Source: Anaerolineales bacterium (lineage in GTDB: Bacteria > Chloroflexota > Anaerolineae > Anaerolineales > Villigracilaceae). From it: a stretch of 64,000 nucleotides of DNA. Both the position numbers and the translations under genes were made by a program. The stretch lies in contig JABFSL010000042.1 in assembly GCA_013140605.1 (NCBI GenBank), positions 31,168 to 95,167 on the forward strand. The letters are read 5' to 3'. This document shows positions 4,619-63,992 of this stretch, piece by piece. The first letter of the stretch is position 1. Every line of letters starts with the position of its first letter. The notes under the pieces were generated by a model that saw only the letters and a program-made list of their open reading frames with translations, was not told where the DNA came from and made no database searches.

Positions 4619-4703
4619 GTCATTGCGAGGGCGTTAGCCCGAAGCAATCCCCAATTTGATAATAAGATTGCTTCGTCGGGGAGACCGCCCTCCTCGCAAT
4701 GAC
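4619..4703. repeat. REP-like palindromic element, GTCATTGCGAG..GAAGCAATC..GATTGCTTC..CTCGCAATGAC family
   Basis: nested inverted repeats; same family recurs at 5856, 19561, 51707 and 56405. Confidence 0.85.
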
Positions 4704-5833: not shown

Positions 5834-5855
5834 AAGGTGATTATACCTAACGCGC

Positions 5856-5895
5856 GATTGCTTCGGGCGAAAAACAAAGATGCCCTCGCAATGAC
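5856..5895. repeat. Half copy of the GATTGCTTC..CTCGCAATGAC REP-like element
   Basis: gattgcttcgggc..gccctcgcaatgac. Confidence 0.75.
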
Positions 5896-19560: not shown

Positions 19561-19648
19561 ATGTCGTTGCGAGGGCGATGTTTTTCGCCCGAAGCAATCT
19601 CCAGTTAAGAGGAGATTGCTTCGTCGCTACCGCTCCTCGCAACGACAT
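19561..19648. repeat. REP-like element (GTCGTTGCGAG..GAAGCAATC..GATTGCTTC..CTCGCAACGAC)
   Basis: nested inverted repeats ending immediately before the MFS ATG. Confidence 0.88.
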
Positions 19649-20788
19649 ATGAGAGGCATTTTGAATCGCAACTTATTTTTTGTGGCCGCGGCTTTATTTC
19701 TTTGGGGCTTCGGCGAAGGGATGTTCTTTAATTTTGTGCCGATCTATCTTGACGTGCAATTTTTGTTGAGCAAATATCAGATCGGGTTGATCCTTGGCGC
19801 GTTCGGTTTTTCAATGGCAATCACGCATATCCCGGCAGGCCGCCTCGCTGATAGATTTGGGCGCAGGCCTTTGCTGATCGGCGCATGGCTGCTTGGATTG
19901 TTCTCAACATTGGTCATGGGGTTTGCGCAGGTCTTGCCGCTTTTTTTAATTGGATTATTTGCTTATGGATTGACGGCCTTTGTTTCATCGCCATTAAGCA
20001 GTTATGTGACCGCTGCGCGCGGCAAGTGGCCTGTTGGAACTGTACTCTCGCTCACCACTGCGACCTTTGGCATGGGTATGGTGCTGGGGCCCGTCACTGG
20101 CGGATGGATCGGAGACCATTACGGCATGCGCATGAGTTTTTATGTTGCGGCTGTTGTGTTCGTTTTCTCGAACTTGTTTATGAGTCTCATCGAGCATCAG
20201 CCAATTGATCATCACGATCCTGATTCTCCTCCGCTGAGTTTGAGAAGCAATCGACGGTTCATCACTTTAATGGGTGTGCTTGCATTTGCGACGTTCTCAA
20301 TGTATCTTGCTCAGCCGCTAACGCCGAATTTTCTCGAAGGTGTGCGCAGACTTTCATTGAGTCAGACAGGATTGGTCTTTACTGCGGGCGCGTTGGGAAA
20401 CTCGTTGCTGGCAATTACTTTCAGCCGTGCCAATCCTCGCCGCGGATATTTATTTACACAAGCGTTGGTGATTTTGTTTGCGTTTTTTATTTGGAAAGGC
20501 ACAACCCTGCCTGTCTTTGCGTTGGGATATTTTCTGCTGGGCGGGTTCCGTGCAAGCCGCCCAATGGCGATGGCGCAGGCGCGTGAGCTTGTACATGATT
20601 CACAGATGGGAATCACCTATGGCATCATGGAAACTATCAGTTCGGTCATCTTCATCGTCACTCCGCCGATTGCTGGTTATTTATTCGAGCGTGACCCGAT
20701 GATTATTTATCCGCTTGCGATTGGTTTGATTCTTGCTTCGATTGTTGTGAGTTCCATGTTTTTGCCGCGAAAGGAAGCCCATGCTTGA
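19649..20788 (+). CDS. MFS transporter
   Basis: GRLADRFGRRP motif A; about 12 TM segments; start uncertain (19616 or 19649). Confidence 0.9.
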   Translation: MRGILNRNLFFVAAALFLWGFGEGMFFNFVPIYLDVQFLLSKYQIGLILGAFGFSMAITHIPAGRLADRFGRRPLLIGAWLLGLFSTLVMGFAQVLPLFLIGLFAYGLTAFVSSPLSSYVTAARGKWPVGTVLSLTTATFGMGMVLGPVTGGWIGDHYGMRMSFYVAAVVFVFSNLFMSLIEHQPIDHHDPDSPPLSLRSNRRFITLMGVLAFATFSMYLAQPLTPNFLEGVRRLSLSQTGLVFTAGALGNSLLAITFSRANPRRGYLFTQALVILFAFFIWKGTTLPVFALGYFLLGGFRASRPMAMAQARELVHDSQMGITYGIMETISSVIFIVTPPIAGYLFERDPMIIYPLAIGLILASIVVSSMFLPRKEAHA

Positions 20789-51695: not shown

Positions 51696-51706
51696 ATGTT
51701 GTGTTC

Positions 51707-51792
51707 ATGTCGTTGCGAGCGCTCTTTGCGAAGCAACCTCCAACGATGAGGAGATTGCTTCGTCGCCGCAAAGCGGCTTCTCGCAACGACAT
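51707..51792. repeat. REP-like element (GTCGTTGCGAG family)
   Basis: atgtcgttgcgag..gaagcaacctc..gagattgcttc..ctcgcaacgacat. Confidence 0.88.
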
Positions 51793-51808
51793 AATGATCA
51801 GGAGAATC

Positions 51809-52969
51809 ATGCAGGCATTAACTGGAATCAAAGTGTTAGATTTAAGCCGCGTGCTGGCTGGCCCTTATTGTACGATGGTTCTCGGTGACCTGGGAGCGGA
51901 TGTGATCAAAGTGGAGCCGCCCGAAGGTGACGAGACACGCGGTTGGGGGCCGCCGTTTGCAGGAGGGGAGAGTGCGTATTATTTATGCGTCAACCGCAAC
52001 AAGCGCGGCATTGTGATCAACTTGAAAACCGATGAAGGCAAAAAGATATTGCGTGACCTCGCGCTGCGGAGTGATGTGCTGGTTGAAAATTTCCGTCCGG
52101 GCACATTGAATAAATTTGGTCTGGATTATGAAACTCTGCATGAGTTGAATCCAAAGTTGATCTATTGCTCAATCACAGGTTTTGGACAAACGGGTTCCAT
52201 GAAGGATAAGCCCGGTTATGATTTTATGATCCAGGCGCTGGGCGGATTGATGAGCATTACAGGTGTGCCAGATGGCGAGCCGATGAAAACAGGCGTGGCC
52301 GTCGTGGACTTGTTCGCGGGGCAGAATGCGATCATTGCTATTCTCGCCGCGTTGCAAGCGCGCACGCTGACAGGGCACGGACAGCATCTTGATATTTCAT
52401 TGTTTGATTCGCAATTAGGCTGGCTGGCGAACGTTGCCAGTAATTATTTAATTTCTGGCAAACTGCCAAAGCGTCACGGCAACGCGCACGCGAATATCGT
52501 GCCGTATCAAAGTTTTCAGGCCAGTGACGGTTGGTTTGCGATTGCGGTGGGGAATGATAAACAGTTTGCGCGCTTATGTGAAATGCTTGGTAAACCCGAG
52601 ATTGCACTTGATGAAAAATTCGCCACGAATTCCGGGCGTGTGGAAAATCGCGCTGAGATCATCTCTTTGCTGGCTTCTATTTTCAAGAATGCTTCTGTCT
52701 CTGAGTGGTTGACAAAACTTGACGAAGCCGAAATCCCATGCGGACCGATTCAAAATTTTGAGCAGGTCTTTTCCATGCCAACTGTGCAAGAACGCGAGAT
52801 GCTTGTGAAGATGAATCATCCTACGATTGGTGAGTTGCCTTTGGTTGGTTCACCGTTGAAGATGACTGATACACCCGTGGAGTATCGTCTACATCCGCCG
52901 TTGATGGGGGAGCATACGGATGAGGTGTTGCGGGAGTTGGGGTATCTTGATGATGGAAGGGATGAATAA
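51809..52969 (+). CDS. CaiB/BaiF family (class III) CoA-transferase
   Basis: VLDLSRVLAGP, GADVIKVE, NRNKR, VENFRPG and SITGFG motifs; start at 51809 after RBS ggaga. Confidence 0.95.
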   Translation: MQALTGIKVLDLSRVLAGPYCTMVLGDLGADVIKVEPPEGDETRGWGPPFAGGESAYYLCVNRNKRGIVINLKTDEGKKILRDLALRSDVLVENFRPGTLNKFGLDYETLHELNPKLIYCSITGFGQTGSMKDKPGYDFMIQALGGLMSITGVPDGEPMKTGVAVVDLFAGQNAIIAILAALQARTLTGHGQHLDISLFDSQLGWLANVASNYLISGKLPKRHGNAHANIVPYQSFQASDGWFAIAVGNDKQFARLCEMLGKPEIALDEKFATNSGRVENRAEIISLLASIFKNASVSEWLTKLDEAEIPCGPIQNFEQVFSMPTVQEREMLVKMNHPTIGELPLVGSPLKMTDTPVEYRLHPPLMGEHTDEVLRELGYLDDGRDE

Positions 52970-53009
52970 AAATTAATGCTAAAAATAATTGGGTTTATAC
53001 TATGCCCAA
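52792..53009 (+). repeat. Direct repeat A1: CoA-transferase 3' end plus TTGGGTTTATACTATGCCCAA
   Basis: aligns with 53816-54033. Confidence 0.9.
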
Positions 53010-53815
53010 CGATTTTCTATTTCAGAGTCATTGCATTTGAAATCTTCATGTTTGCGTTGGCACACTTTCCTTCAGTTAATAAAGGATTAAAATAATGTCA
53101 GAAGAACAACAAATGAGAAAAGTTATTTTTGCAATCAATATCACGATAGACGGCTGCTGCGGACATGAATCGGTAGTCGCCGACGACGAACTGCACGAGT
53201 ACTTCACCGGGCTCCTGCGGGATTCAGGCGTTGAAATTTTCGGGCGCAACACGTATCACTTGATGTATCCGTACTGGCACGATGTCGCAGTGAATCAATC
53301 GGAAACGAAAGTGACCAACGAATTCGCGCGTACATTCGATTCCATGCAAAAGATCGTCTTTTCAACGACGTTGAAGAGCGTAGAGTGGAACAACACGACG
53401 CTCCTCCACTCAAATCTTCGAGAAGAGATTATGAAGTTAAAACAACAGCCAGGAAAAAATATTTCCATTGGTGGACTGAACATCGCAGCGCAAGTTGCAC
53501 AATGGGATCTCATCGACGAGTATCACTTTGTCGTTCACCCGATCATTGCGGGAAAAGGTCCCCGCTTGTTCGAAACGGGCAGGAACCTTACATTAAAACT
53601 TGTCGGGTCAAAAACGTTTCGTTCGGGAGTTGTTGCGTTACATTATAAGAAATAATTCTTTATGGAAACCAAAGGATTGCTGTTCGGTTCCATCGGTTTG
53701 GAAAGAGTGAGACATGTATTTCTAACGGTGGCATTATCGATCTCCTGATGAGTAGTGCTGCCTGGCGTGGTTGGTCAATTCTTCGGAGAGACGCTTCAAA
53801 CAATGCACCTGAATC
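53010..53815. mobile_element. Small acquired segment (one DHFR-like gene) bracketed by repeats A1 and A2
   Basis: flanking direct repeats; no recombinase gene inside. Confidence 0.5.
53095..53655 (+). CDS. DHFR/RibD C-terminal-like reductase
   Basis: NITIDG, FGRNTY, KIVFSTTL, DLIDEYHFVVHPIIAGKGPRLF and SGVVALHY motifs. Confidence 0.9.
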   Translation: MSEEQQMRKVIFAINITIDGCCGHESVVADDELHEYFTGLLRDSGVEIFGRNTYHLMYPYWHDVAVNQSETKVTNEFARTFDSMQKIVFSTTLKSVEWNNTTLLHSNLREEIMKLKQQPGKNISIGGLNIAAQVAQWDLIDEYHFVVHPIIAGKGPRLFETGRNLTLKLVGSKTFRSGVVALHYKK

Positions 53816-53993
53816 ACGCGAGATACTTGTGAAAATGGATCATCCCACCATTGGTGAATTGCCTTTAGTCGGCTCGCCGTTGAAGATGAGCGACACGCCC
53901 GTGGAATATCGTCTCCCGCCGCCGTTGATGGGGGAGCATACGGAGGATGTGTTGAGGGAGTTGGGATATGGGGATGATGGAAGGAAGGTGTAA
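53816..53993 (+). pseudogene. Orphan 3' fragment of the CaiB/BaiF gene (repeat A2 extends to 54033)
   Basis: EILVKMDHPTIGELPLVGSPLKMSDTPVEYRLPPPLMGEHTEDVLRELGY versus host EMLVKMNHPTIGELPLVGSPLKMTDTPVEYRLHPPLMGEHTDEVLRELGY. Confidence 0.9.
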
Positions 53994-54141
53994 AACTCCA
54001 AACTCTAAATAGTTGGGTTTATACTATGCCCAATGTTTATTTGCCCAGAACTGCTTACACAAACGGTTAAGGTGTGTGCATTATCAATAATATTGACAAA
54101 TAATTTTGTTATTTCTACTAAATAATAACGAGGAAAATAAA

Positions 54142-54747
54142 ATGCCAAAATACCAGGGACACCGAAATATAGTTCACCCAGATGGAAGTAATGATTCTTC
54201 ATGGCTAGTATATACATGCGCTAACTGTAATACAAATGTGTCTGGTGCAGTAGTGTCAGCTTTTAATAACGGTTATGGGGTTGTCAAGTGGTTGCTATGT
54301 TCTAGCTGTGGGGAAGGTTCTGTGCAATTATCCAATACCCTTATTTATCCCAGTGCTTCATTCGGGCCAATCATTGATGGATTGCCCGATGATGTAAAGA
54401 TTGCATATACAGAAGCTCGGAATTGCATATCAACTAATGCGATAACTGCTTGCGAACTTATGTGCCGCAAAATATTAATGCATGTTGCTGTTGAGAAGGG
54501 TGCCAAGGAAGGAGATACCTTTGCGGCATATCTGACACATCTTGAGGGGTTAGGATATATAACCCCTCCTATGAAAATATGGGTCGGGTTAATTCGTGAA
54601 AATGGAAATGAGGCTACGCATTTATTAGCAACACCTCCAAGAGAACGAGTAGAAAGCACTTTGTTTTTTACGGCGGAACTTCTACGCTTGGTTTATGAAA
54701 TGGAATTTTTGGCAAGGAAATATGTTCCAAAAGCACCAAACCCATAA
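54142..54747 (+). CDS. Zinc-ribbon + DUF4145 (HEPN-like) protein
   Basis: CxxC..CxxC; AYTEARNC..ACELMCRKIL; IRENGNEATH; AT-rich. Confidence 0.8.
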   Translation: MPKYQGHRNIVHPDGSNDSSWLVYTCANCNTNVSGAVVSAFNNGYGVVKWLLCSSCGEGSVQLSNTLIYPSASFGPIIDGLPDDVKIAYTEARNCISTNAITACELMCRKILMHVAVEKGAKEGDTFAAYLTHLEGLGYITPPMKIWVGLIRENGNEATHLLATPPRERVESTLFFTAELLRLVYEMEFLARKYVPKAPNP

Positions 54748-54803
54748 AATTGTATTGGGAATATTGACTGGAGCTTGAAGTAGATGACATCATCACCATC
54801 CCT

Positions 54804-54961
54804 TCATAAAAAATCTCCGAGTTCTTCAAGAACTCGGAGATTTGGTTTTAACTTATGCTGTTTCGATCAATTCCATTGCTTCCAACATTTCTTCGTTGCT
54901 GGAGAACTTGAATTCCAGGAGTCCACGTTTTTTTGGCTTCTTCCGCTCGACTACTTCGAGC
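54804..54961 (-). pseudogene. Direct repeat B1: frameshifted orphan 3' end of the FAD oxidoreductase gene plus its terminator
   Basis: aligns with 61506-61664; encodes EEAKKRGLLEFKFSSNEEMLEAMELIETA*; 1-nt deletion; hairpin aaatctccgagttct/agaactcggagattt. Confidence 0.9.
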
Positions 54962-55044
54962 CATGTTTTGCTTCTGAAGGAAACGACTGCTATCAAGCTT
55001 GAAAATGGGGGAATACAACAAAGTACCCAAATGACCGAACTACA

Positions 55045-55073
55045 TTGACAGACATAGTACTTTGATGTATATT
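55045..55073 (+). promoter_or_regulatory. Sigma70 promoter TTGACA-17-TATATT of the padR operon
   Basis: -10 box ends 6 nt before ATG 55080, consistent with a leaderless mRNA. Confidence 0.7.
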
Positions 55074-55079
55074 GTACCT

Positions 55080-55421
55080 ATGGATGAGTCAACAACCCCC
55101 AACAAAATCTCCTCAGACCTCCTTAGAGGTCATACCGATACGATTATCCTGAAGTTATTGCTAAGCGGTGACAAATATGGGTATGAAATATCGAAATTGA
55201 TCCATATAAATTCCTCCGGTGAGTATGAACTCAAGGAAGCTACCATGTACTCAAGTCTAAAGAGGCTGGAGGGTGACGGCTGTATCACTTCCTATTGGGG
55301 TGATGAGTCCCAGGGCGGCAGAAGACGGTATTACCAGATCACCGCAAGAGGTAAAAAGGCGTATTCTGAAAATAAAGATAACTGGGAATACGCAAAGCGC
55401 GTACTCGATAACTTATTGTAA
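55080..55421 (+). CDS. PadR-family transcriptional regulator
   Basis: DLLRGHTD, YGYEI, ATMYSSLKRLE and RRRYYQIT motifs. Confidence 0.93.
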   Translation: MDESTTPNKISSDLLRGHTDTIILKLLLSGDKYGYEISKLIHINSSGEYELKEATMYSSLKRLEGDGCITSYWGDESQGGRRRYYQITARGKKAYSENKDNWEYAKRVLDNLL

Positions 55422-55436
55422 AGGAGATGTGATGTT

Positions 55437-56363
55437 ATGAACGAGAAATTAAACCAATATTTGGATGGCGTTTTTGCACCCTATGATGGAGTAAAAAGCG
55501 TCGCCGAGCTAAAGGCCGATCTGCTCTCCGATTTGCAGGAGCGGTTCCGTGAACTCAAGGCCGAAGGCAAGGACGATGAAACGGCCTTTGCGATGACCGT
55601 TGACAGTATCGGCGACATCGAACAAACGGTACAGGAGGTCGCTAGTCTCTCCCGCTCATTGGAGCGGCAGGTGCTAATAAACTTCAGCGGGAGCAACCTG
55701 CCAGAGAGCGACTTTGCAGGCGTTACTGTGCATAAAGGGAAATTTGAAGGAAGTGCATTGCACGACTCCAACTTTGCAGGTGCAGCCTTGACTGGCAGCT
55801 CGTTTGTAGGCAGCGATGTGCGTGATACCAATTTTGCAAACGCAGACTTAACTGGCAGCTCGTTTAAGGCCAGCGATGTGCGCGAAGTCAATTTTGACGG
55901 GGCAAATCTGACAGATTGCACCCTGTACGCGAGTGACTTTACGGGTGCAAGCTTCAACAAAGCCATTCTTGTGCGCACCCAAATCAACGCGTCAGAGCTG
56001 AGCGGGGCAAAATTCAGCGATGTAAAACTGGTTGACGTAAAGCTGACGGCTACCGACCTTAGGAAAATAGTCTTTGAGAAGTGTACCTTCAACGGTGTGG
56101 ACTTCAAATACTGTGACCTGCAAGGGCAGTGCCTGGACGGAATGACCTTTATTGGCGTCCACTTTGACAGGGTGGAGCTGAAGGAAGTTACGTTTAAAGG
56201 CGCAACATTTAAAAATGTGTCCTTCCTTCCGTCGTTTGCCTTGACGAATAAATACTACCGTGCCATCAAAGCCATTAACTTTGACGGTGCCATGATGGAT
56301 AAGCTGACCTACGCCGCACTCAAAGGTTTGGGAGTCGATTTATCAAAAGTTACTGTTATCTAA
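55437..56363 (+). CDS. Pentapeptide-repeat protein with N-terminal helical (HAAS/permease-prefix-like) domain
   Basis: YLDGVF..ELKADLLSDLQERF..SIGDIE; many A(D/N)Lxx/SxFxx pentapeptide coils. Confidence 0.88.
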   Translation: MNEKLNQYLDGVFAPYDGVKSVAELKADLLSDLQERFRELKAEGKDDETAFAMTVDSIGDIEQTVQEVASLSRSLERQVLINFSGSNLPESDFAGVTVHKGKFEGSALHDSNFAGAALTGSSFVGSDVRDTNFANADLTGSSFKASDVREVNFDGANLTDCTLYASDFTGASFNKAILVRTQINASELSGAKFSDVKLVDVKLTATDLRKIVFEKCTFNGVDFKYCDLQGQCLDGMTFIGVHFDRVELKEVTFKGATFKNVSFLPSFALTNKYYRAIKAINFDGAMMDKLTYAALKGLGVDLSKVTVI

Positions 56364-56404
56364 GGGTTCGTAAAAATATAATTTCCCTCACCTGCCGCCG
56401 AACC

Positions 56405-56508
56405 ATGTCTTTGCGAAGGCGCACTTGCTCTTCGCCCGAAGCAATCCCCTCGCTGATACGGAGATTGCTTCGCCGCCAAAGACCAAGAGCGGCGGCTCGC
56501 AACGACAT
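56405..56508. repeat. REP-like element (GAAGCAATC..GATTGCTTC family)
   Basis: atgtctttgcga..gaagcaatc..gagattgcttc..ctcgcaacgacat. Confidence 0.85.
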
Positions 56509-56551
56509 TGCGGGAAGTTAATAATTTACAGACCCTAAGGAGAAGAAGAAT

Positions 56552-57313
56552 ATGCTAAACAATTCAATCCAAGTGAAAGGGCTGCAAAAGTCCTATAAGA
56601 AACTTCATGTTCTAAAGGGTGTCGATTTTGAGGTGGAAAAAGGCAGTATTTTCGCCCTGCTCGGCTCCAACGGTGCGGGCAAGACCACGATTGTCAAAAT
56701 CCTCACCACGCTGCTCAAACAGGATAGCGGAACTGCCAGCGTCAACGGCTTCGACGTTGCGGCAAAGCCCGACGATGTGCGGCAGTCGATCAGCTTGACC
56801 GGGCAATTCGCCGCCGTGGATGAAATTTTGACTGGTCGGGAAAATCTGATAATGATTGCCAGGCTGCGGCATCTCAAAGATCCGCATCAGGTCACGGATG
56901 ATCTGCTGAACCGCTTCGGCCTGACCGACGCTGCCGATCGCGGAGTATCCACCTATTCGGGCGGTATGCGCCGCAGACTCGACATCGCCATGAGCCTGGT
57001 AGGGAAACCGCAGATCATTTTCCTCGACGAGCCCACTAACGGGCTTGACCCCGAAGCGCGTATCGAGGTTTGGAAGACTGTCAAAGAGCTTGCTAATAAC
57101 GGCACGACGGTACTTCTGACTACACAGTATTTGGACGAAGCTGAACAGCTCGCCGACAGAATTGCCATTCTGCATGAAGGGAAAATTATCGCGAACGGCA
57201 CACTCGCGGAACTGAAGAAGCTGTTTCCGCCCGCAAAGGTGGAATATATTGAAAAACAGCCGAGCTTGGAGGAAATATTCCTCGCAATCGTCGGCAAGAA
57301 AGAGGAAAAGTAA
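56552..57313 (+). CDS. ABC exporter ATP-binding protein (DrrA-like)
   Basis: GSNGAGKT, YSGGMRRRLD and FLDEPT motifs. Confidence 0.95.
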   Translation: MLNNSIQVKGLQKSYKKLHVLKGVDFEVEKGSIFALLGSNGAGKTTIVKILTTLLKQDSGTASVNGFDVAAKPDDVRQSISLTGQFAAVDEILTGRENLIMIARLRHLKDPHQVTDDLLNRFGLTDAADRGVSTYSGGMRRRLDIAMSLVGKPQIIFLDEPTNGLDPEARIEVWKTVKELANNGTTVLLTTQYLDEAEQLADRIAILHEGKIIANGTLAELKKLFPPAKVEYIEKQPSLEEIFLAIVGKKEEK

Positions 57314-58081
57314 ATGGAAACGATAAAGAACTATTTTTTCAGCGACATGGGCGTCATGCTTGAACGTTCCATGCGCCATATTTTCCGCAGCATGGATACC
57401 ATCATCACGACCACCATCATGCCGATTGCGCTTATGCTGTTGTTCGTCTATGTGTTCGGCGGCGCCATTCAAACCGGCACGGATAACTATGTGAATTACC
57501 TGTTGCCCGGTATACTGCTGATTACCATTGCAAACAGTATAGGCTATGTGTCTTTCCGCCTGTTTACCGATGTGCAACGGGGAATATTCGAGCGTTTCCA
57601 CTCCATGCCGATTGCGCGTTCGGCCGCGCTGTGGGGGCACGTGCTGACCTCACTGGTGTCCAATACGATTTCGGTTGTCGTCATCATTCTCGTGGCGCTC
57701 GTGATGGGCTTCCGCTCGCCGGCAGGCGTATTGTCATGGCTTGCCGTGGCCGGTATACTCGCGCTGTTTTCGCTGGCCTTGACCTGGATTGCGGCGATTG
57801 CCGGGTTGTCCGCAAAATCGTTGGATGGCGCAATTGCAATTGCCTATCCGATTCACCTCCTGCCGTTAATTAGCTCGGCATTTGTGCCGACCGCGACGAT
57901 GCCTTTGGCCGTTCGCGTCTTTGCCGAAAATCAGCCTGTGACCTCGATAATAGAGACCATCCGTGCGTTGCTGTCAGGTCAGCCGGTGGGCAATGATATC
58001 TGGATTGCGCTCGCGTGGTGCGTCGGGATTATGCTCGTGGCTTATGTCTTTGCGATGAGGGTGTATAAAAAACGGGTGTAA
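57314..58081 (+). CDS. ABC-2 type permease (DrrB-like)
   Basis: YVFGGAI, YLLPGILL, ERFHSMPI, SSAFVP and NQPVT motifs. Confidence 0.93.
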   Translation: METIKNYFFSDMGVMLERSMRHIFRSMDTIITTTIMPIALMLLFVYVFGGAIQTGTDNYVNYLLPGILLITIANSIGYVSFRLFTDVQRGIFERFHSMPIARSAALWGHVLTSLVSNTISVVVIILVALVMGFRSPAGVLSWLAVAGILALFSLALTWIAAIAGLSAKSLDGAIAIAYPIHLLPLISSAFVPTATMPLAVRVFAENQPVTSIIETIRALLSGQPVGNDIWIALAWCVGIMLVAYVFAMRVYKKRV

Positions 58082-58180
58082 TGAAAACTTGAAAAAATCT
58101 TTTCATTTTCTGTGTATCCATTTTTCTCTTCGCAGATTCAAGTATCAAGTGCAACTTTGAAGACAGTCAAAAGAGGTAAC

Positions 58181-58690
58181 ATGGAATTTAGCATTCTTTA
58201 TCAGGAACTTCAAAATAGCACAGAGATGATCCGTGCTTTATTGTCGGGAGTCGCACCAGAGGCAGCACGCCTCAAACCGAGTGCGGAGTCGTGGTCAATG
58301 CTCGAGGCGGTGTGTCACTTATACGATGTAGAGCGCGAAGATTTTCGAGAACATCTCGATTTCATTCTTTACCGCCAAAATGAAAAATGGCATGAGATTG
58401 ACTCCGATCGTTTGGTAACAGAGCGAAAATATAACGAACAGAACTTCGCTGACATGCTGGAAAAATTCTTTGCCGAACGTGAAAAATCACTTGCCTGGCT
58501 CAATGAATTGCAGAATCCAGATTGGGGGAAAACTTTTACAACGGAGTACCGCACAATCAGTGCGGGAGAGATGTTCGCCTGTTGGGTTGCGCATGACAAT
58601 CTCCATATCCGCCAATTGGTGGAACTCAGGCGCATGAGGCTGGAAAATATCACAAAGCCTTACAATCTCGAATACGCAGGTGATTGGTAA
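58181..58690 (+). CDS. DinB/YfiT-family metalloprotein
   Basis: WSMLEAVCHL and WVAHDNLHIRQL motifs; start at 58181 after RBS gagg. Confidence 0.88.
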   Translation: MEFSILYQELQNSTEMIRALLSGVAPEAARLKPSAESWSMLEAVCHLYDVEREDFREHLDFILYRQNEKWHEIDSDRLVTERKYNEQNFADMLEKFFAEREKSLAWLNELQNPDWGKTFTTEYRTISAGEMFACWVAHDNLHIRQLVELRRMRLENITKPYNLEYAGDW

Positions 58691-58747
58691 CTGATAGATG
58701 CGAAATGCACAAGCGAAGGTTCTGTTCAAATGGTATAGGAGATTCTA

Positions 58748-59053
58748 ATGATTGCGAGAACTTGGCACGGCATAACTGAAGCATCGAAAGCCGATGAGTA
58801 CTTTGACTACCTAAACAAAACAGGTGTTGCTGCATATCGCGCGACACAAGGAAATCTAGGCGTGTATGTGCTACGCAGGATTGAGGGAAACAAAGCTCAT
58901 TTTCTATTGCTTACGCTCTGGGAATCCGAAGATGCCATAAAAAGGTTTGCGGGCTCAAATATAGAGAAAGCTAAGTATTACCCTGAAGATGAGCAGTTTC
59001 TTCTTGAGCTTGAGCCAACAGTTACGCATTATGAAGTCATGGTTAAGCCGTAG
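58748..59053 (+). CDS. Antibiotic biosynthesis monooxygenase (ABM)-like protein
   Basis: MIARTWHG, GNLG, TLWES..IKRFAG and YYPED motifs; RBS aggag. Confidence 0.85.
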   Translation: MIARTWHGITEASKADEYFDYLNKTGVAAYRATQGNLGVYVLRRIEGNKAHFLLLTLWESEDAIKRFAGSNIEKAKYYPEDEQFLLELEPTVTHYEVMVKP

Positions 59054-59089
59054 AAATTATCGAAACAGGAAAAGCAGCAGGGTTGTTCC

Positions 59090-59263
59090 GCGTAACACAG
59101 TTACAGCGACAGATGGGAGCCTGCGCGTTTTAAAAGCATTTTTCCTTGGACAGTCCGCCACCTTCGGCAGGCTGGCTTCGAGTTTTCTCTGCTCCCAAGC
59201 AGAGTCTACGCCCACCCAGTGCCACAGCCCGTAGGGCTAGTCCGCGAACGCAAACCGTTAGAA
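59090..59263 (+). repeat. Degenerate integron attC-like site
   Basis: GCGTAAC-ACAGT ... GCAAACC-GTTAGAA ends with internal hairpins (ctctgct/agcagag, gccc/gggc); imperfect R boxes and longer than usual. Confidence 0.55.
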
Positions 59264-59320
59264 AGCACTTGTCAGAATTATGCTGATAGTTTTTACCTCC
59301 TAAAATGGCAGAATCAGAAT

Positions 59321-59900
59321 ATGCTTAATCAAAATTTCGTAATAATTGGCACTCTAATTGGCACTACAGGTGCTTTCGCGTATGTATGGGACACAATTAA
59401 GGGGAATGTCAAACCTAATAGAGTCTCTTTTTTATTATGGTCAATCGCTCCGATGATTGCCTTTGCAGCCCAAATAAAACAAGGGGTGGGTTTAGAGTCA
59501 TTAATGACTTTTAGTACTGGTTTTCTGCCTCTTTTAACTTTTATCGCCTCCTTTACCAATAAAAATGCCGAATGGAAATTAACAAGGTTTGATTTAGCAT
59601 GTGGCTTTTTGTCTTTGGTAGGTCTGATTATTTGGCTGATAACAAAGGTTGGTAATGTGGCTATTTTCTTTAGCATCGTGGCTGATGGTCTGGCTGCACT
59701 ACCAACACTGGTTAAGGCCTATAAACATCCAGAAACGGAGGTTGCATGGCCTTGGCTGGCAACTTGCTTTGGCGTTACTTTAACATTACTAACGTTAAAG
59801 GAGTGGACATTTGCCAATAGCGGTTTTTATCATTTATATCTTTATTGTGGACTTAATGATTTTTATCTGTGTGCAATTCAAGTTAGGAAAGCGGGCTTAA
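59321..59900 (+). CDS. Hypothetical polytopic membrane protein, apparent +1 frameshift near the 3' end
   Basis: PNRVSFLLW and PTLVKAYKHPETE; removing one T at ~59823-59827 restores a last TM helix (FIIYIFIVDLMIFICVQFKLGKRA*) stopping at 59900. Confidence 0.65.
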
Positions 59901-59927
59901 AATACCCTCGCACTCGGAAGGCTATCT

Positions 59928-61397
59928 ATGACACCCAAAAACATCTTCGCTGGTCTTGAGCCTGCCGCTCTGTGGGCCTGCTTCTCGCGCATTACTGAAA
60001 TCCCCAGGCCGTCCGGACAAGAGTCCGCAATCGCTGAATGGCTTGCCAATTGGGCGAGCACTCAAGGCTTCTTGTCTCGCCGAGACACCGCCGGGAACAT
60101 CTGCGTTTACGTTCCCGCATCTATGGATTCGCTCGCCTCGCGAACGGTCGCGTTGCAGGCCCACCTGGACATGGTATGTGTCCGCTCCGACGATAGCACT
60201 TCCGATCCCGCCGCGGGCAGCATCCGGATTCTCCGCGAAGGAGACTGGATAGTAGCCCCATCTTCCACCCTCGGCGCGGATAACGGGATCGGGATAGCTG
60301 CGGCGATGTGCCTCGCTGAGAGCAAAGCCACGCCTCACGGCCCCCTTGAACTGCTGTTCACTGTCGAGGAAGAAACCACATTCAAGGGCGCAGACGAACT
60401 GGACCCCAGCCTAATTCAGGCTAATGTGATGCTGAACCTTGACCATGAGACCGCAGGCGAACTGTGTGTTGGATGCGCCGGGGCTACCTGGACTATCCTT
60501 CGCTGGCCTGCCCCCGCTCAACCATCTCCTGAGGGTTGGCTTGTCGTAGATATTGTTCTCTCGGGGCTCAGCGGTGGGCATTCAGGTAAAGACATTCACA
60601 AGAACCAGCTGAACGCCATCAAGGGAATGGTCTGGCTCGTTAGGAGGCTTGCTAAGGATGTCCCGTTCCGTCTCTGCGCGCTTGAAGGCGGCGACGCGGT
60701 CAATGCCATTCCCATTTGGGCACATGCGACCATCTCGTTTCCGCCCACCGAGGCTCATTCCTTCAAAGCAGCCCTTGCTGACGCCCGCTCTCGTCTCGCG
60801 AGCCGTTTTTCCCTCACCGACCCCGGGCTTTCCCTTTCCACGGCCAATATCGATCTGCAAGGCATCAAGTGCTGGAGCGACGAGAGCCGGGATCGGCTGC
60901 TTGACCTCCTCACTGCTGTCCCTTCAGGGGTGGTCGCAATGGAGCAACACGCTCCCGATATGGTTGAGACATCCAACAACCTGGGGATTGTCGCCTTGAG
61001 AGACGATGTTGTAGAGGTTCACTGCCTATCCCGATCTTCAGTAGCTGACGCTCAAGAAGAGACCGTAGCCTCGATAGAATCCGTCGCCCAGTTGGCCGGG
61101 GCCGAATTCGCCATTGTCCCACCAGTCATAGGTCCATGGCGTCTCCCCTCCGATTCTGCCCTATTGGCCATCGTGCAAGCCACATATCAGGATCTCTTCC
61201 GCCGAGCGCCTATCTTGGCTACGATACATGCAGGCGTCGAATGCGGAACCATCCAACAACGCATCCCAGGTCTGGACGTTCTCTCTCTGGGTCCAGAAAT
61301 CCACTATCTCCACAGGCCAGGAGAGCGCGTTAATATTCCCTCTGTGGTGGAGTTTTATGCACTGCTTTGTGAAGTTGTCCGGAGGCTAGCGGCTTAG
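59928..61397 (+). CDS. M20 aminoacyl-histidine dipeptidase (PepD-like)
   Basis: IPRPSG, LQAHLDMV, LGADNGIG, TVEEET, GGHSG, SNNLG and HAGVECG motifs; more GC-rich than its neighbour. Confidence 0.88.
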   Translation: MTPKNIFAGLEPAALWACFSRITEIPRPSGQESAIAEWLANWASTQGFLSRRDTAGNICVYVPASMDSLASRTVALQAHLDMVCVRSDDSTSDPAAGSIRILREGDWIVAPSSTLGADNGIGIAAAMCLAESKATPHGPLELLFTVEEETTFKGADELDPSLIQANVMLNLDHETAGELCVGCAGATWTILRWPAPAQPSPEGWLVVDIVLSGLSGGHSGKDIHKNQLNAIKGMVWLVRRLAKDVPFRLCALEGGDAVNAIPIWAHATISFPPTEAHSFKAALADARSRLASRFSLTDPGLSLSTANIDLQGIKCWSDESRDRLLDLLTAVPSGVVAMEQHAPDMVETSNNLGIVALRDDVVEVHCLSRSSVADAQEETVASIESVAQLAGAEFAIVPPVIGPWRLPSDSALLAIVQATYQDLFRRAPILATIHAGVECGTIQQRIPGLDVLSLGPEIHYLHRPGERVNIPSVVEFYALLCEVVRRLAA

Positions 61398-61460
61398 GAA
61401 CTCATTTCCGTTCCCTATCAGGGCTTCCTGCTCTTGACTGTTCCCCAGAACCTCGGGGCG

Positions 61461-61486
61461 GCCTAACACAGCATGGACCCGACTGG
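61461..61486 (+). repeat. Truncated attC-like left arm
   Basis: GCCTAAC (perfect RYYYAAC)-ACAGC-ATGGACCC-GACTGG, 63 nt after the pepD-like stop; no right arm. Confidence 0.55.
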
Positions 61487-61505
61487 TAGATAGTTTCATG
61501 GTTCC

Positions 61506-61664
61506 TCACAAAAAATCTCCGAGTTCTTTAAGAACTCGGAGATTTGGTTTTAGCTTACGCTGTTTCGATCAATTCCATTGCTTCAAGCATTTCTTCGTTT
61601 CTGGAGAACTTGAATTCCACAAGTCCGCGTTTCTTGGCTTCTTCAGCTTCGACCGCTTCGAGCC
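61506..61664 (-). repeat. Direct repeat B2: functional 3' end and terminator of the FAD oxidoreductase gene
   Basis: aligns with 54804-54961. Confidence 0.9.
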
Positions 61665-62868
61665 GTTTGATGTCGTCTTTCATGATGACGGGCTTGCTTA
61701 ACCCGCGCATCTTTTCGGTGACATCGTCCATGCTGGCGTTTGCGGGCTGAATGGTCTGGAGATAGTCCCAGACGGCTCTGGCGGCGTTGGTCCCATCTTT
61801 GCGCGCATAACCGACCAAACCTTCGCTGGCTTTGCGTGACCATCCGCCTACGAATACACCGTCAATTGTGGATTCATAGGAGATGCCGTCCACAGGGAAT
61901 TTCGGTTCTTTGTTTTTGATGAACTCGTTCCATTCAGTCGGCAGGCCAAAGGATTCGTCCACTTTATCGCCGATGGCGAAGATGACCGTGTCTACATCAA
62001 TGGTGCGTTTGACGCCTGTTCCCTTTGCGCTGATCTTTCCGTCTCTTTCAGTGAGGATGTTATCCTCCACTTCCAATTTGGTCAGCGCGCCGTTCTCTCC
62101 GAACATCGCAGTGGGCGAGGCGAGGAAGTCAAAATGAAACTTGGCCTCGCTGGTTTTGGGATCTGCCTTCGCGAGAGCATCCAACACTTTTTGCCGACCA
62201 GCTTCCAGGTCCTGATTGATCGCTTGCACGACAGGCTGAACCCGCGCCATTTCCTTTTCGAATTCATCCAGATCCAGATATGAGATCAGATGCTTCATTT
62301 CTTCCTTGGTGAAATTTACTTCATTTGGGCCGCGTCGTACAACTGCGATGACCTCGTCCACTTTTTGGACGTTGATCAGATGTCGTGCAATATCCACCAT
62401 CACATTGCCCGCGCCGATGATGGCACAGCGTTTTCCAAAGCGGAAATTTTTCTGGCTGTAAGGCGGCAGGTTGTTGTACGCATATACAACTTCCTTGGCG
62501 TGATACACGCCTTCAAGTTCTTCGCCGGGCAGGCCGAGCCATTTGGTTCCCTGCGCGCCCGCGCTGACAAGCACAGCATCAAAGCCAAGTTCGCGCAATT
62601 CATTGAGCGTAATATCGCCATTGTCTCCGACAACAAGGTTGCCGTAATATTCAAGGTTGGGGTTATCCATCGCGCCGCGGAACTGCTTGCGCAACCCTTC
62701 CTTCATCATATGCTTTTCAGGATAAATCCCATACTCGGCCAAACCGCCCGGTTTAATATCGCGATTAAAAAGTGCAACACGAACGCCTTGATTTGCCAAT
62801 TCGCGCGCGCCGAACAAGCCCGCCGGGCCCGCTCCTATTACTGCTACAGAATAAATTTTCTCACTCAC
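61555..62868 (-). CDS. FAD-dependent oxidoreductase, ferredoxin-NADP+/adrenodoxin reductase-like
   Basis: GAGPAG, GGLAEYGI, GAGNV and GGWSRKASEGLVG motifs; GTG 62868 after RBS ggagg. Confidence 0.85.
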   Translation of the reverse strand: MSEKIYSVAVIGAGPAGLFGARELANQGVRVALFNRDIKPGGLAEYGIYPEKHMMKEGLRKQFRGAMDNPNLEYYGNLVVGDNGDITLNELRELGFDAVLVSAGAQGTKWLGLPGEELEGVYHAKEVVYAYNNLPPYSQKNFRFGKRCAIIGAGNVMVDIARHLINVQKVDEVIAVVRRGPNEVNFTKEEMKHLISYLDLDEFEKEMARVQPVVQAINQDLEAGRQKVLDALAKADPKTSEAKFHFDFLASPTAMFGENGALTKLEVEDNILTERDGKISAKGTGVKRTIDVDTVIFAIGDKVDESFGLPTEWNEFIKNKEPKFPVDGISYESTIDGVFVGGWSRKASEGLVGYARKDGTNAARAVWDYLQTIQPANASMDDVTEKMRGLSKPVIMKDDIKRLEAVEAEEAKKRGLVEFKFSRNEEMLEAMELIETA

Positions 62869-63203
62869 TTCAACCTCCGTCAAATAAGACAAAAACTGTA
62901 CGATTATATTTGGGAATTATACAATCAACAAGCTGTAAAACTGGATTCTCATCATGCTTTTATAATTATTTCATTATCCTACAAGTCGAACAGGAATTGA
63001 AAAAGTTACCCGTGACCACATTAGACTTTCATGAGAAACCCATACCCCCCGCTTTTTCTCCGTGCTTTCGTGAAATCCGTGCACTGATGGTTTAATTATG
63101 GCAATTCCCAATGACCTTAAAAATCAAAATAGTTATCAGGTTGTAACTGTGTTAATATTGGCGTAAGTCATCATCGACCGGCGTTTTTTCAACAGGAGAC
63201 ACC

Positions 63204-63992
63204 ATGAACAATGAACCCAAAAAAGATCCCAGCGCCCGTTTGCGAAACGTATTGGGCAATCAATCTGCGCTCAGCCATCTCCCTAAAAAGAGGAATGACA
63301 CAACAGATTTTATGCCAGAGCATGAATCCAGAAAAGAGCCGTCTGTAAAAAAGGATGTGACGCATCATGCTGCGCCCGAGCCTGATCCTGTTACGAAGAA
63401 ACGTAGGTTTAACTTTTGGCCCGCCATCTGGACGATTGCGAGCGTTCTTTCTCTTACCATCAATTTGGTTCTGGCCATTCTACTATTTTCGACCTGGATG
63501 AATCTCCCATCCCTGAATGTTAACGGCGCCACAGATGTTGTCACCGATATTGGTACCGGGGTGCTCGGAGGTTTATATACAAATTTTGAAAAAATGGATC
63601 GCGCCCATATTACGCGCACAATTCCTGTTCAAACCACGATCCCGGTCAAATTTGATCTGGCACTTAACCAACAAACGAACGTGGTTTTGAGTCAGGACGT
63701 GACGATCAGTAATGCGCTTGTCACTGTAAACACTGGCGGCTTGAATATATCAAGAGCGTTGGCAACCATTGTTCTGCCCCAGGGAACGACCCTGCCTGTT
63801 GTGTTAAATTTGACCGTCCCTGTGGATACCACTGTGCCGGTCTCGTTGAATGTGGATGTTGATATTCCTTTAAATGAAACACAGCTGCATGATCCGTTCG
63901 TGGGCTTGCGTCAGGTGGTTGAACCATACTATTGCATGATCAATCCCGAAGCTCTTAATCTGGATGGACAGAAAGTTTGCGTGAATAAATAA
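63204..63992 (+). CDS. Hypothetical single-pass membrane protein with a beta-rich external domain
   Basis: RBS aggag; charged N-terminus, one TM helix, V/P/T-rich C-terminus with 2 Cys. Confidence 0.7.
   Translation: MNNEPKKDPSARLRNVLGNQSALSHLPKKRNDTTDFMPEHESRKEPSVKKDVTHHAAPEPDPVTKKRRFNFWPAIWTIASVLSLTINLVLAILLFSTWMNLPSLNVNGATDVVTDIGTGVLGGLYTNFEKMDRAHITRTIPVQTTIPVKFDLALNQQTNVVLSQDVTISNALVTVNTGGLNISRALATIVLPQGTTLPVVLNLTVPVDTTVPVSLNVDVDIPLNETQLHDPFVGLRQVVEPYYCMINPEALNLDGQKVCVNK

Follow-up and report, generated by a model that had tools for sequence, protein, structure and literature searches.

The 64-kb window analysed here, a stretch of Anaerolineales DNA, carries an island between two convergent core genes, one for a CoA-transferase (end 52969) and one for a pyridine-nucleotide oxidoreductase (61555-62892, minus strand). 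In the right-hand part of this island two short segments follow an ABM-type monooxygenase gene and the dipeptidase gene pepD. Both segments are very probably relics of integron gene cassettes that belong to the attC family of this lineage, and the cassette remnants in the window are eroded. The features concerned are the following.

58748-59053, plus strand: ABM/HmoA-like monooxygenase gene (101 amino acids; Pfam ABM), the open reading frame of the ABM cassette.
59084-59266, plus strand: segment 1, identified below as the decayed attC of the ABM cassette (38.9 bits with covariance model R1).
59321-59959, plus strand: membrane-protein gene (212 amino acids; no family match).
59928-61397, plus strand: pepD, beta-Ala-His dipeptidase of family M20C (TIGR01893, 432 bits; cut-off 344).
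61461-61487, plus strand: segment 2, identified below as the 5' stub of the attC of the pepD cassette (R'' box GCCTAAC, spacer, start of L'').
61485-61499, minus strand: methyltransferase remnant, first five codons (MKLST), recognised by alignment and overlapping the attC stub at GGT.
61506-61664: repeat B2, 160 nt, the true 3' end and terminator of the oxidoreductase gene.

The integron integrase IntI cleaves attC sites at G↓TT in the R' box, and each cassette therefore ends with its own attC. The site acts as a folded single strand in which R'' and R' are paired, a spacer remains unpaired, L'' and L' form an imperfect stem, and some bases are extra-helical. Given the position of the cut, bases after GTT belong to the next cassette and should complement the R'' box of the next site.

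Both motifs had been pointed out in an initial annotation made from the letters alone. Segment 1 starts with GCGTAAC-ACAG at 59090 (R'' box GCGTAAC, 59090-59096) and ends with CAAACC-GTTAGAA at 59263 (R' box GTTAGAA, 59257-59263). Segment 2 opens with GCCTAAC at 61461-61467 and continues as ACAGCATGGACCCGACTGGT up to 61487. As described, both lie on the gene strand and both contain TAAC-ACAG. The description of segment 1 as one 174-nt imperfect palindrome did not hold, as its ends were unpaired in minimum free energy folds of either strand.

When positions 59054-59330 were compared by BLAST with the window's own 3.9-Mb assembly (the own genome), 49 matches were obtained which clustered in arrays; one of them, C128:66572-66659, was 93% identical over 88 nt (E 6e-30). 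An nhmmer search with a DNA profile built from five full copies detected 61 copies of a family of ~130 nt on 17 contigs. Within a cluster all copies occupied one strand and were mostly 0.6-2 kb apart. The sequence of a canonical copy is GCCTAAC-AAA-GCGTGCACCTGACGTGTGGG ... CCCACACGCAGGTAACGC-AAACC-GTTAGGC. When 29 copies were aligned, the ends were GCCYAAC ... GTTRGGC with AAC and GTT invariant, i.e. a pair of inverse core sites of the form RYYYAAC/GTTRRRY. Covariance model R1, which was trained on 29 other own-genome copies with segment 1 left out, scored intact copies at 100-166 bits; with it the family was detected in 32 of 36 species of the genus and, beyond the genus, in some further families of the order. 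Together with the match of R1 to segment 1 (see below) and the 61 copies, this contradicts both outcomes that would have refuted the initial annotation, i.e. the lack of a covariance-model match and the lack of similar repeats beside other genes of the lineage. The lineage is Anaerolineales, in keeping with the likeness to attC-type repeats of Anaerolineae noted in that annotation. Cassette arrays occupy many separate loci of the own genome, G000 (C128 58.4-71.2 kb, C118 39.4-44.5 kb, C123 14.8-16.7 kb, C126, C21, C63 and others), several of them mid-contig in long contigs, and scattered arrays are also present in genomes G032 and G025. The closed genome G032, from a sister species, contains at least 52 attC matches at several places.

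In the consensus structure of the 29 copies (RNAalifold), R'' and R' pair over 5 bp, a spacer stays unpaired, and L'' and L' form a stem whose 5' arm carries extra bases. Of the cells, 88% were paired, compared to 25-43% when the partners were slid, and 51 cells showed double changes as opposed to 25.6 in shuffled alignments, a value matched by none of 500 shuffles. Bottom-strand DNA of intact copies folded into a long stem with a bulge on the '' arm (z -2.0 to -2.9). The consensus fold, the pair-count controls and the bottom-strand folds all agree with an attC that acts as a folded single strand.

Neighbouring copies also followed the cassette boundary rule. The 6 nt beyond GTTR of one R' box were the perfect reverse complement of the next R'' box in 14 of 30 neighbour pairs, and at least five positions agreed in 22 of the 30; R'' and R' of one and the same site matched at a mean of 3.1 of 6 positions, compared to 3.0 for random pairs. 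An integrase gene, which the initial annotation had proposed to look for elsewhere in the genome, is located on contig C72:

C72:1150-2118, plus strand: intI (TIGR02249, 449 bits).
C72 near 1040-1100: attI, with a junction that matches R'' of the first cassette.
C72:101-243, minus strand: attC beside intI.

The TIGR02249 cut-off of 265 bits was exceeded in none of 14 control genomes and in 33 of the 61 genomes compared. Relatives of this IntI carry names such as Anaerolineales bacterium and Ca. Villigracilis. On C72, intI is divergent from the adjoining attC, and the attI junction (...AAACATA↓GTTGGGCAGGCAC) agrees exactly with the reverse complement of R'' of the first cassette (GTGCCTGCCCAAC) at 13 of 13 positions. 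The contig thus holds intI, attI and at least one attC, which makes a complete integron at the level of the genome, outside the window. In an array of G032, one attC follows each, mostly single, same-strand open reading frame, and on C72 intI and attI stand at the head of an array. In the attI region (C72 1000-1100) repeated TATACAGCG / CGCTGTATAA boxes are found upstream of the GTT crossover; they are conserved in a platform of G032 that lacks intI, and they are candidate binding sites of IntI. The genome and most of the genus carry chromosomal integrons with one conserved attC family of ~130 nt, and the repeats display every property of attC sites that could be assessed from sequence.

A repetitive extragenic palindromic (REP) or miniature inverted-repeat transposable element (MITE), or a set of transcription terminators with a superficial likeness to attC, might likewise be conserved over its whole 130 nt and occur in numerous copies, and a separate REP-like family is indeed present in the genome. 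However, the boundary rule, the adjacency to intI and attI, the presence of one same-strand open reading frame per repeat and the covariation in the stem are unexpected of such elements. Conservation over the whole length is in turn typical of sedentary chromosomal integrons, as is known from the high overall conservation of the Vibrio cholerae repeats (VCR). This explanation is considered highly improbable.

Segment 1 was aligned by R1 over the full model (positions 1-142, both R boxes; 59084-59266, plus strand; E 1.3e-7) and was the sole significant match in the 64-kb window. The covariance model, named as a check in the initial annotation, thus gave a match; the bottom-strand fold, also named there, had a different outcome. 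The bottom strand of segment 1 did not adopt the canonical fold at minimum energy (z -0.89), and its L'' box is damaged in that the GCGT/ACGC pairs beside the spacer are lost. Besides, it contains a 28-nt insert in the central loop and a hairpin insert in the 3' arm, the latter being a variant common to four other copies.

The identity of segment 1 emerges from two metagenome contigs. In L149, the same ABM gene (94% amino acid identity) and the same 40-nt spacer are followed by a full attC (90.9 bits) within an array. Contig L139 matches the window at ~92% DNA identity over a stretch that reaches from 55 nt upstream of the ABM gene through the R'' box. From the orthologous site in L149 and the colinearity with L139, segment 1 is identified as the own attC of the ABM cassette in a decayed form. 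Because L149 and L139 keep a pair of R''-like boxes at a distance of 12 nt and the window a single box at this place, a slip deletion is suggested to have reduced the two boxes to one. The ABM gene accordingly keeps its own attC, in a copy which has lost part of L'', gained two inserts and ceased to fold like intact copies. In L139 (4340-4965), the attC of the ABM gene starts normally with two R'' boxes and L'' and then gives way to ~550 nt of unrelated sequence ending in AATAAATAGTTGGGCAGC, which resembles an attI junction. The membrane protein of the window is unrelated to the product of the gene after ABM in L139.

Two points could be taken to mean that the segments are chance palindromes in spacer DNA: segment 2 comprises 27 nt, and the overall fold of segment 1 was no better than that of shuffled sequences. 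Against this stand the E value of the covariance-model match, the 93% identity over 88 nt and the orthologous full sites after the same genes elsewhere, which leave chance with a practically negligible probability.

The region of segment 1 is polymorphic among relatives:

59051-59898, plus strand: 848-nt stretch with the segment 1 attC and the membrane-protein gene, absent in contig L148, which has CCC instead.

Judged visually in the alignment, identity between L148 and the window is ~98% from the DinB-family gene into pepD. In L148 the ABM gene is fused to the pepD leader and encodes a 112-amino-acid ABM protein. The same fused junction occurs in the more distant contigs L143-L145, where the membrane-protein gene is found after the pepD attC (e.g. 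in L144). The fused ABM genes (L148 180-518; L143 4651-4989; L144 3250-3588) have lost stop codon and attC, read 11 codons into the pepD leader and overlap the pepD start; the fusion documents how two cassette genes become a two-gene operon. As ABM with attC is common to the window, L139 and L149, the fused form seems to be derived. Its presence in both near (L148) and far (L143-L145) relatives is at odds with simple descent. The junction observed in L148 and L144, AAGCCG-CCC-AAAATACCC, was predicted neither by IntI acting at GTT nor by a microhomology deletion of a simple kind.

The polymorphism raises the question of whether segment 1 is still a working attC, such that IntI could move the ABM cassette and its neighbour and the 848-nt difference in L148 would be a recent IntI event. 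The genome has an intact intI, segment 1 keeps the TAAC...GTTA ends and part of the L stem, the stretch differs between sequences that are nearly identical around it, and the membrane-protein gene lies between GTTAGAAAGC (59257) and GTTAGGAAAGC (59882). Yet the end points in L148 and L144 are not at G↓TT of either R' box, and the whole attC is gone, unlike in an excision between two attC sites. In addition, 38.9 bits and a non-canonical fold compare poorly with the 100-166 bits of intact copies. A working site is thus improbable, and both window sites are probably inert for recombination now.

Segment 2 had four significant matches in the own genome (E 5e-6 to 7e-4), all of which were 5' ends of attC copies. 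It keeps R'', the spacer and ~13 nt of L'', i.e. an incomplete site, and repeat B2 starts at 61506, 18 nt beyond its end; in this respect the initial annotation, which had the site cut just before B2, was accurate. Homologues of pepD at 88-89% identity are present in metagenome contigs, and in L144 and L146 an attC follows the gene. In L143-L145 this is a full 143-nt attC (60.8 bits, E 4e-13), and the 60 nt before it as well as the first ~27 nt of the site are colinear with the window. L146 has the same attC start after pepD and then a different, degenerate remainder. By comparison with these contigs, segment 2 is identified as the first ~27 nt of the attC of the pepD cassette. Searches of the own genome for the attC partners expected of segments 1 and 2 (GCTTTCTAAC, GTTACGCGGAA, GTTAGGCCGCC) gave chance matches and none at an attC.

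The window copy of this attC ends with ...GACTGGT and continues directly into GGTAGATAGTTTCAT, the reverse complement of ATGAAACTATCTACC. The latter encodes MKLST and represents codons 1-5 of a methyltransferase gene that adjoins the oxidoreductase gene in G012 and G032. At the join, the attC (…CTGGTGGGAG…) and the methyltransferase gene (…GGTGGAAAG…) share a GGTGG-like motif. Because the methyltransferase remnant abuts the attC stub with this shared motif, we infer a microhomology deletion between short GGTGG-like repeats that would have taken away ~115 nt of the attC, whatever further cassettes there were, and the methyltransferase gene almost entirely. The end of segment 2 would then be a deletion scar. 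In the initial annotation the last attC had been regarded as broken at the insertion junction of the island; a break by deletion into the methyltransferase gene, with GGT as microhomology, takes the place of that view.

Two more genes of the island have relatives in cassettes:

53023-53655, plus strand: RibD_C gene block; a cassette flanked by attCs in G010 is 91% identical to it.
58181-58705, plus strand: DinB-family gene, 94% identical to an own-genome copy beside an attC.

The homology of the RibD_C block to the G010 cassette starts 13 nt inside the 5' boundary of the cassette, and the own-genome copy of the DinB-family gene (C19:19204-19729) comes directly after an attC (19755-19917). As no attC follows either gene in the window, their cassette origin rests on these homologues elsewhere. 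The initial annotation's view that part of the island is a captured cassette array is supported by the cassettes of ABM with attC and pepD with attC in other contigs, by RibD_C and DinB beside attCs elsewhere and by an array of seven cassettes and attI in G032. The island genes ABM and pepD are former cassettes, and RibD_C and DinB are probably so. The 1-kb bin 60001-61000, which covers most of pepD, has 59% G+C as opposed to 43-44% in the two preceding bins (58001-60000), and pepD had no DNA match in 60 related genomes. The high G+C content and the lack of DNA matches in relatives, together with an attC of the lineage's own type, suggest that pepD was recruited from a source richer in G+C into the local cassette pool. 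The membrane-protein gene had a 76% DNA match in G013.

Several observations weigh against an origin from integron cassettes. R1 was derived from the repeats of the own genome and is not an independent attC model, segment 2 is too short for a model score alone, and the window has one significant site only. The ABM gene is also found in a non-cassette operon, HIT-ABM-Rce1, at 91-93% amino acid identity, and no attC was seen upstream of ABM in the window or, as stated, after RibD_C or DinB. The boundary rule fails in the window: R' of segment 1 (GTTAGAAAGC) is not the complement of R'' of segment 2 (GGCGGCCTAAC), and for this reason the stretch from segment 1 to segment 2 is not one clean cassette. 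Further, the methyltransferase remnant amounts to 15 nt only, and the likeness of 54034-54110 to the G032 platform (see below) is short, in a stretch with no above-shuffle match to the own-genome attI region.

The gap between the CoA-transferase and oxidoreductase genes is hypervariable among relatives, its length ranging from a few nt in G020 through 0.35-2 kb to 7-12 kb. In the window, duplicated gene ends are present in addition to B2:

52792-53009: repeat A1, the 3' end of the CoA-transferase gene.
53816-54110, plus strand: repeat A2 (83% copy of A1; the copy itself is 53816-54033) and ~75 nt following it.
54804-54962: repeat B1, a 90% copy of B2.

In G032 the same gap, read in the orientation of the window, contains duplicates of both gene ends, the oxidoreductase 3' end being joined to the CoA-transferase 3' end, then the start codon and leader of intI without the gene itself, and an attI that is homologous to the C72 attI (local score 95; shuffled controls, obtained with a shorter query from the window, averaged 35 and reached at most 54). 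These are followed by seven cassettes in the same orientation, each with an attC of 66-138 bits, and by the methyltransferase gene. No intI was found anywhere in this closed genome. Repeat A2 and the ~75 nt after it align with G032 up to ~35 nt before attI, at which point the window continues with a DUF4145 gene; attI is absent from the window locus, where only the sequence leading up to it is recognisable. As window positions 54021-54145 matched the intI/attI region of the own genome no better than shuffled sequences, the link to the platform is drawn from the G032 alignment. Because the same gap in this sister species holds attI and seven intact cassettes without intI, the cargo of the window would most likely descend from such an integrase-less platform, with erosion and rearrangement having followed.

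Cassettes could instead have been inserted one by one by IntI at a secondary, attG-like site downstream of the CoA-transferase gene, with no inherited attI platform. Insertion at secondary sites is an accepted origin of attC site clusters that have no integron integrase (CALIN; PMC4889954), and both CoA-transferase ends in the window are followed by RTTGGGTTTATACTATGCCCAAY, a palindrome whose halves are like GTTRRRY and RYYYAAC and which is also present in G032. But no cassette of the window starts at a G↓TT junction, the RibD_C homology beginning 13 nt inside the boundary, and the array of G032 is headed by a true attI, with the sequence leading up to that attI being shared by the window. One-by-one insertion is thus unlikely, and descent from an integrase-less platform is preferred. 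The palindrome RTTGGGTTTATACTATGCCCAAY occurs at 52988-53010 and 54013-54035 in the window and at ~7775-7750 in L037. Its halves resemble the two core sequences, AATAGTTGGG resembles the attI junction CATAGTTGGG, and RTTGGGTTTATACTATGCCCAAY may be a candidate secondary recombination site.

The diverged 3'-end duplicates of the flanking genes, A1/A2 (83%) and B1/B2 (90%), bound blocks of the island, and a region of the same kind is seen in L037 (8040-7800). The direct join of a B-type to an A-type copy in G032 is what tandem stacking of two gap alleles would be expected to leave, which would be a Campbell-type integration of a circularised homologous segment. It is conceivable, if doubtful, that the gap serves as a lineage-wide landing pad where variable blocks, including integrase-less platforms, pass between species by homologous recombination in the flanking genes, each event leaving a diverged 3'-end duplicate; cassettes would then spread in Anaerolineales largely without integrase, and parked attCs would decay. 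The B-A junction of G032 and the duplicates A1/A2 and B1/B2 of the window would, on this assumption, be traces of such 'allele stacking'.

The island also includes an operon for PadR, a pentapeptide-repeat protein, an ABC ATPase and an ABC-2 permease (55062-58081). It is single-copy in the own genome, a 75-88% identical operon is located at a different locus in G032 and other relatives, and it is not a cassette. When 52500-63300 was scanned against Rfam with permissive E-values, none of the matches was relevant and none belonged to an attC-type family. A separate REP/MITE-like family of CGAAGCAATC...GATTGCTTCG hairpins is represented in the window at 51706-51795, 56360-56539, 4634-4678, 5848-5895 and 19579-19627; the own genome contains more than 80 copies and the genus many, with up to 98% identity over 175 nt. 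Since one copy overlaps the annotated GTG start of the CoA-transferase open reading frame, the true start of this gene is probably further downstream.

Two short motifs read from sequence alone thus correctly pointed to integron relics, and part of the island cargo is explained as former cassettes (ABM and pepD, probably RibD_C and DinB). The locus documents the erosion of an array by loss of an L box, by inserts within an attC, by a microhomology deletion that cut an attC, and by fusion of cassette genes after attC loss. Elements of this kind are known already, so that what is gained is mainly annotation and evolutionary detail.

Integrons in Chloroflexi and integrase-less arrays have been described before (Cury et al. 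2016, PMC4889954), and the origins proposed there for CALIN, i.e. loss of intI, rearrangement and insertion at secondary sites, all fit the present locus. The window shares with a CALIN a chromosomal locus with attCs of a bona fide family; its contig has no intI match, and IntI is encoded elsewhere in the genome. The initial annotation called the remnants CALIN-like. A CALIN in the strict sense comprises at least two attCs within ~4 kb and no intI nearby, whereas the window offers one scorable site and a 27-nt stub 2.2 kb away and so, strictly, falls short of it. Another difference is that the PadR-ABC operon, which is not a cassette, and copies of the flanking genes' 3' ends are interspersed among its cassettes.

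The attC family itself resembles the VCR (~120-130 nt) in being long and conserved over the whole length within a lineage, in forming arrays of mostly small open reading frames, and in its R''/L''...L'/R' architecture, in which the spacer is unpaired and the '' arm has extra bases, the comparison being one of architecture. It belongs to another sequence family and another phylum (Chloroflexota, Anaerolineales), and its copies form scattered, separate arrays and not one super-array. The closest counterpart at the same locus is the intI-less attI platform of G032, which has kept attI, the intI start codon and seven cassettes, while the window is without attI too.

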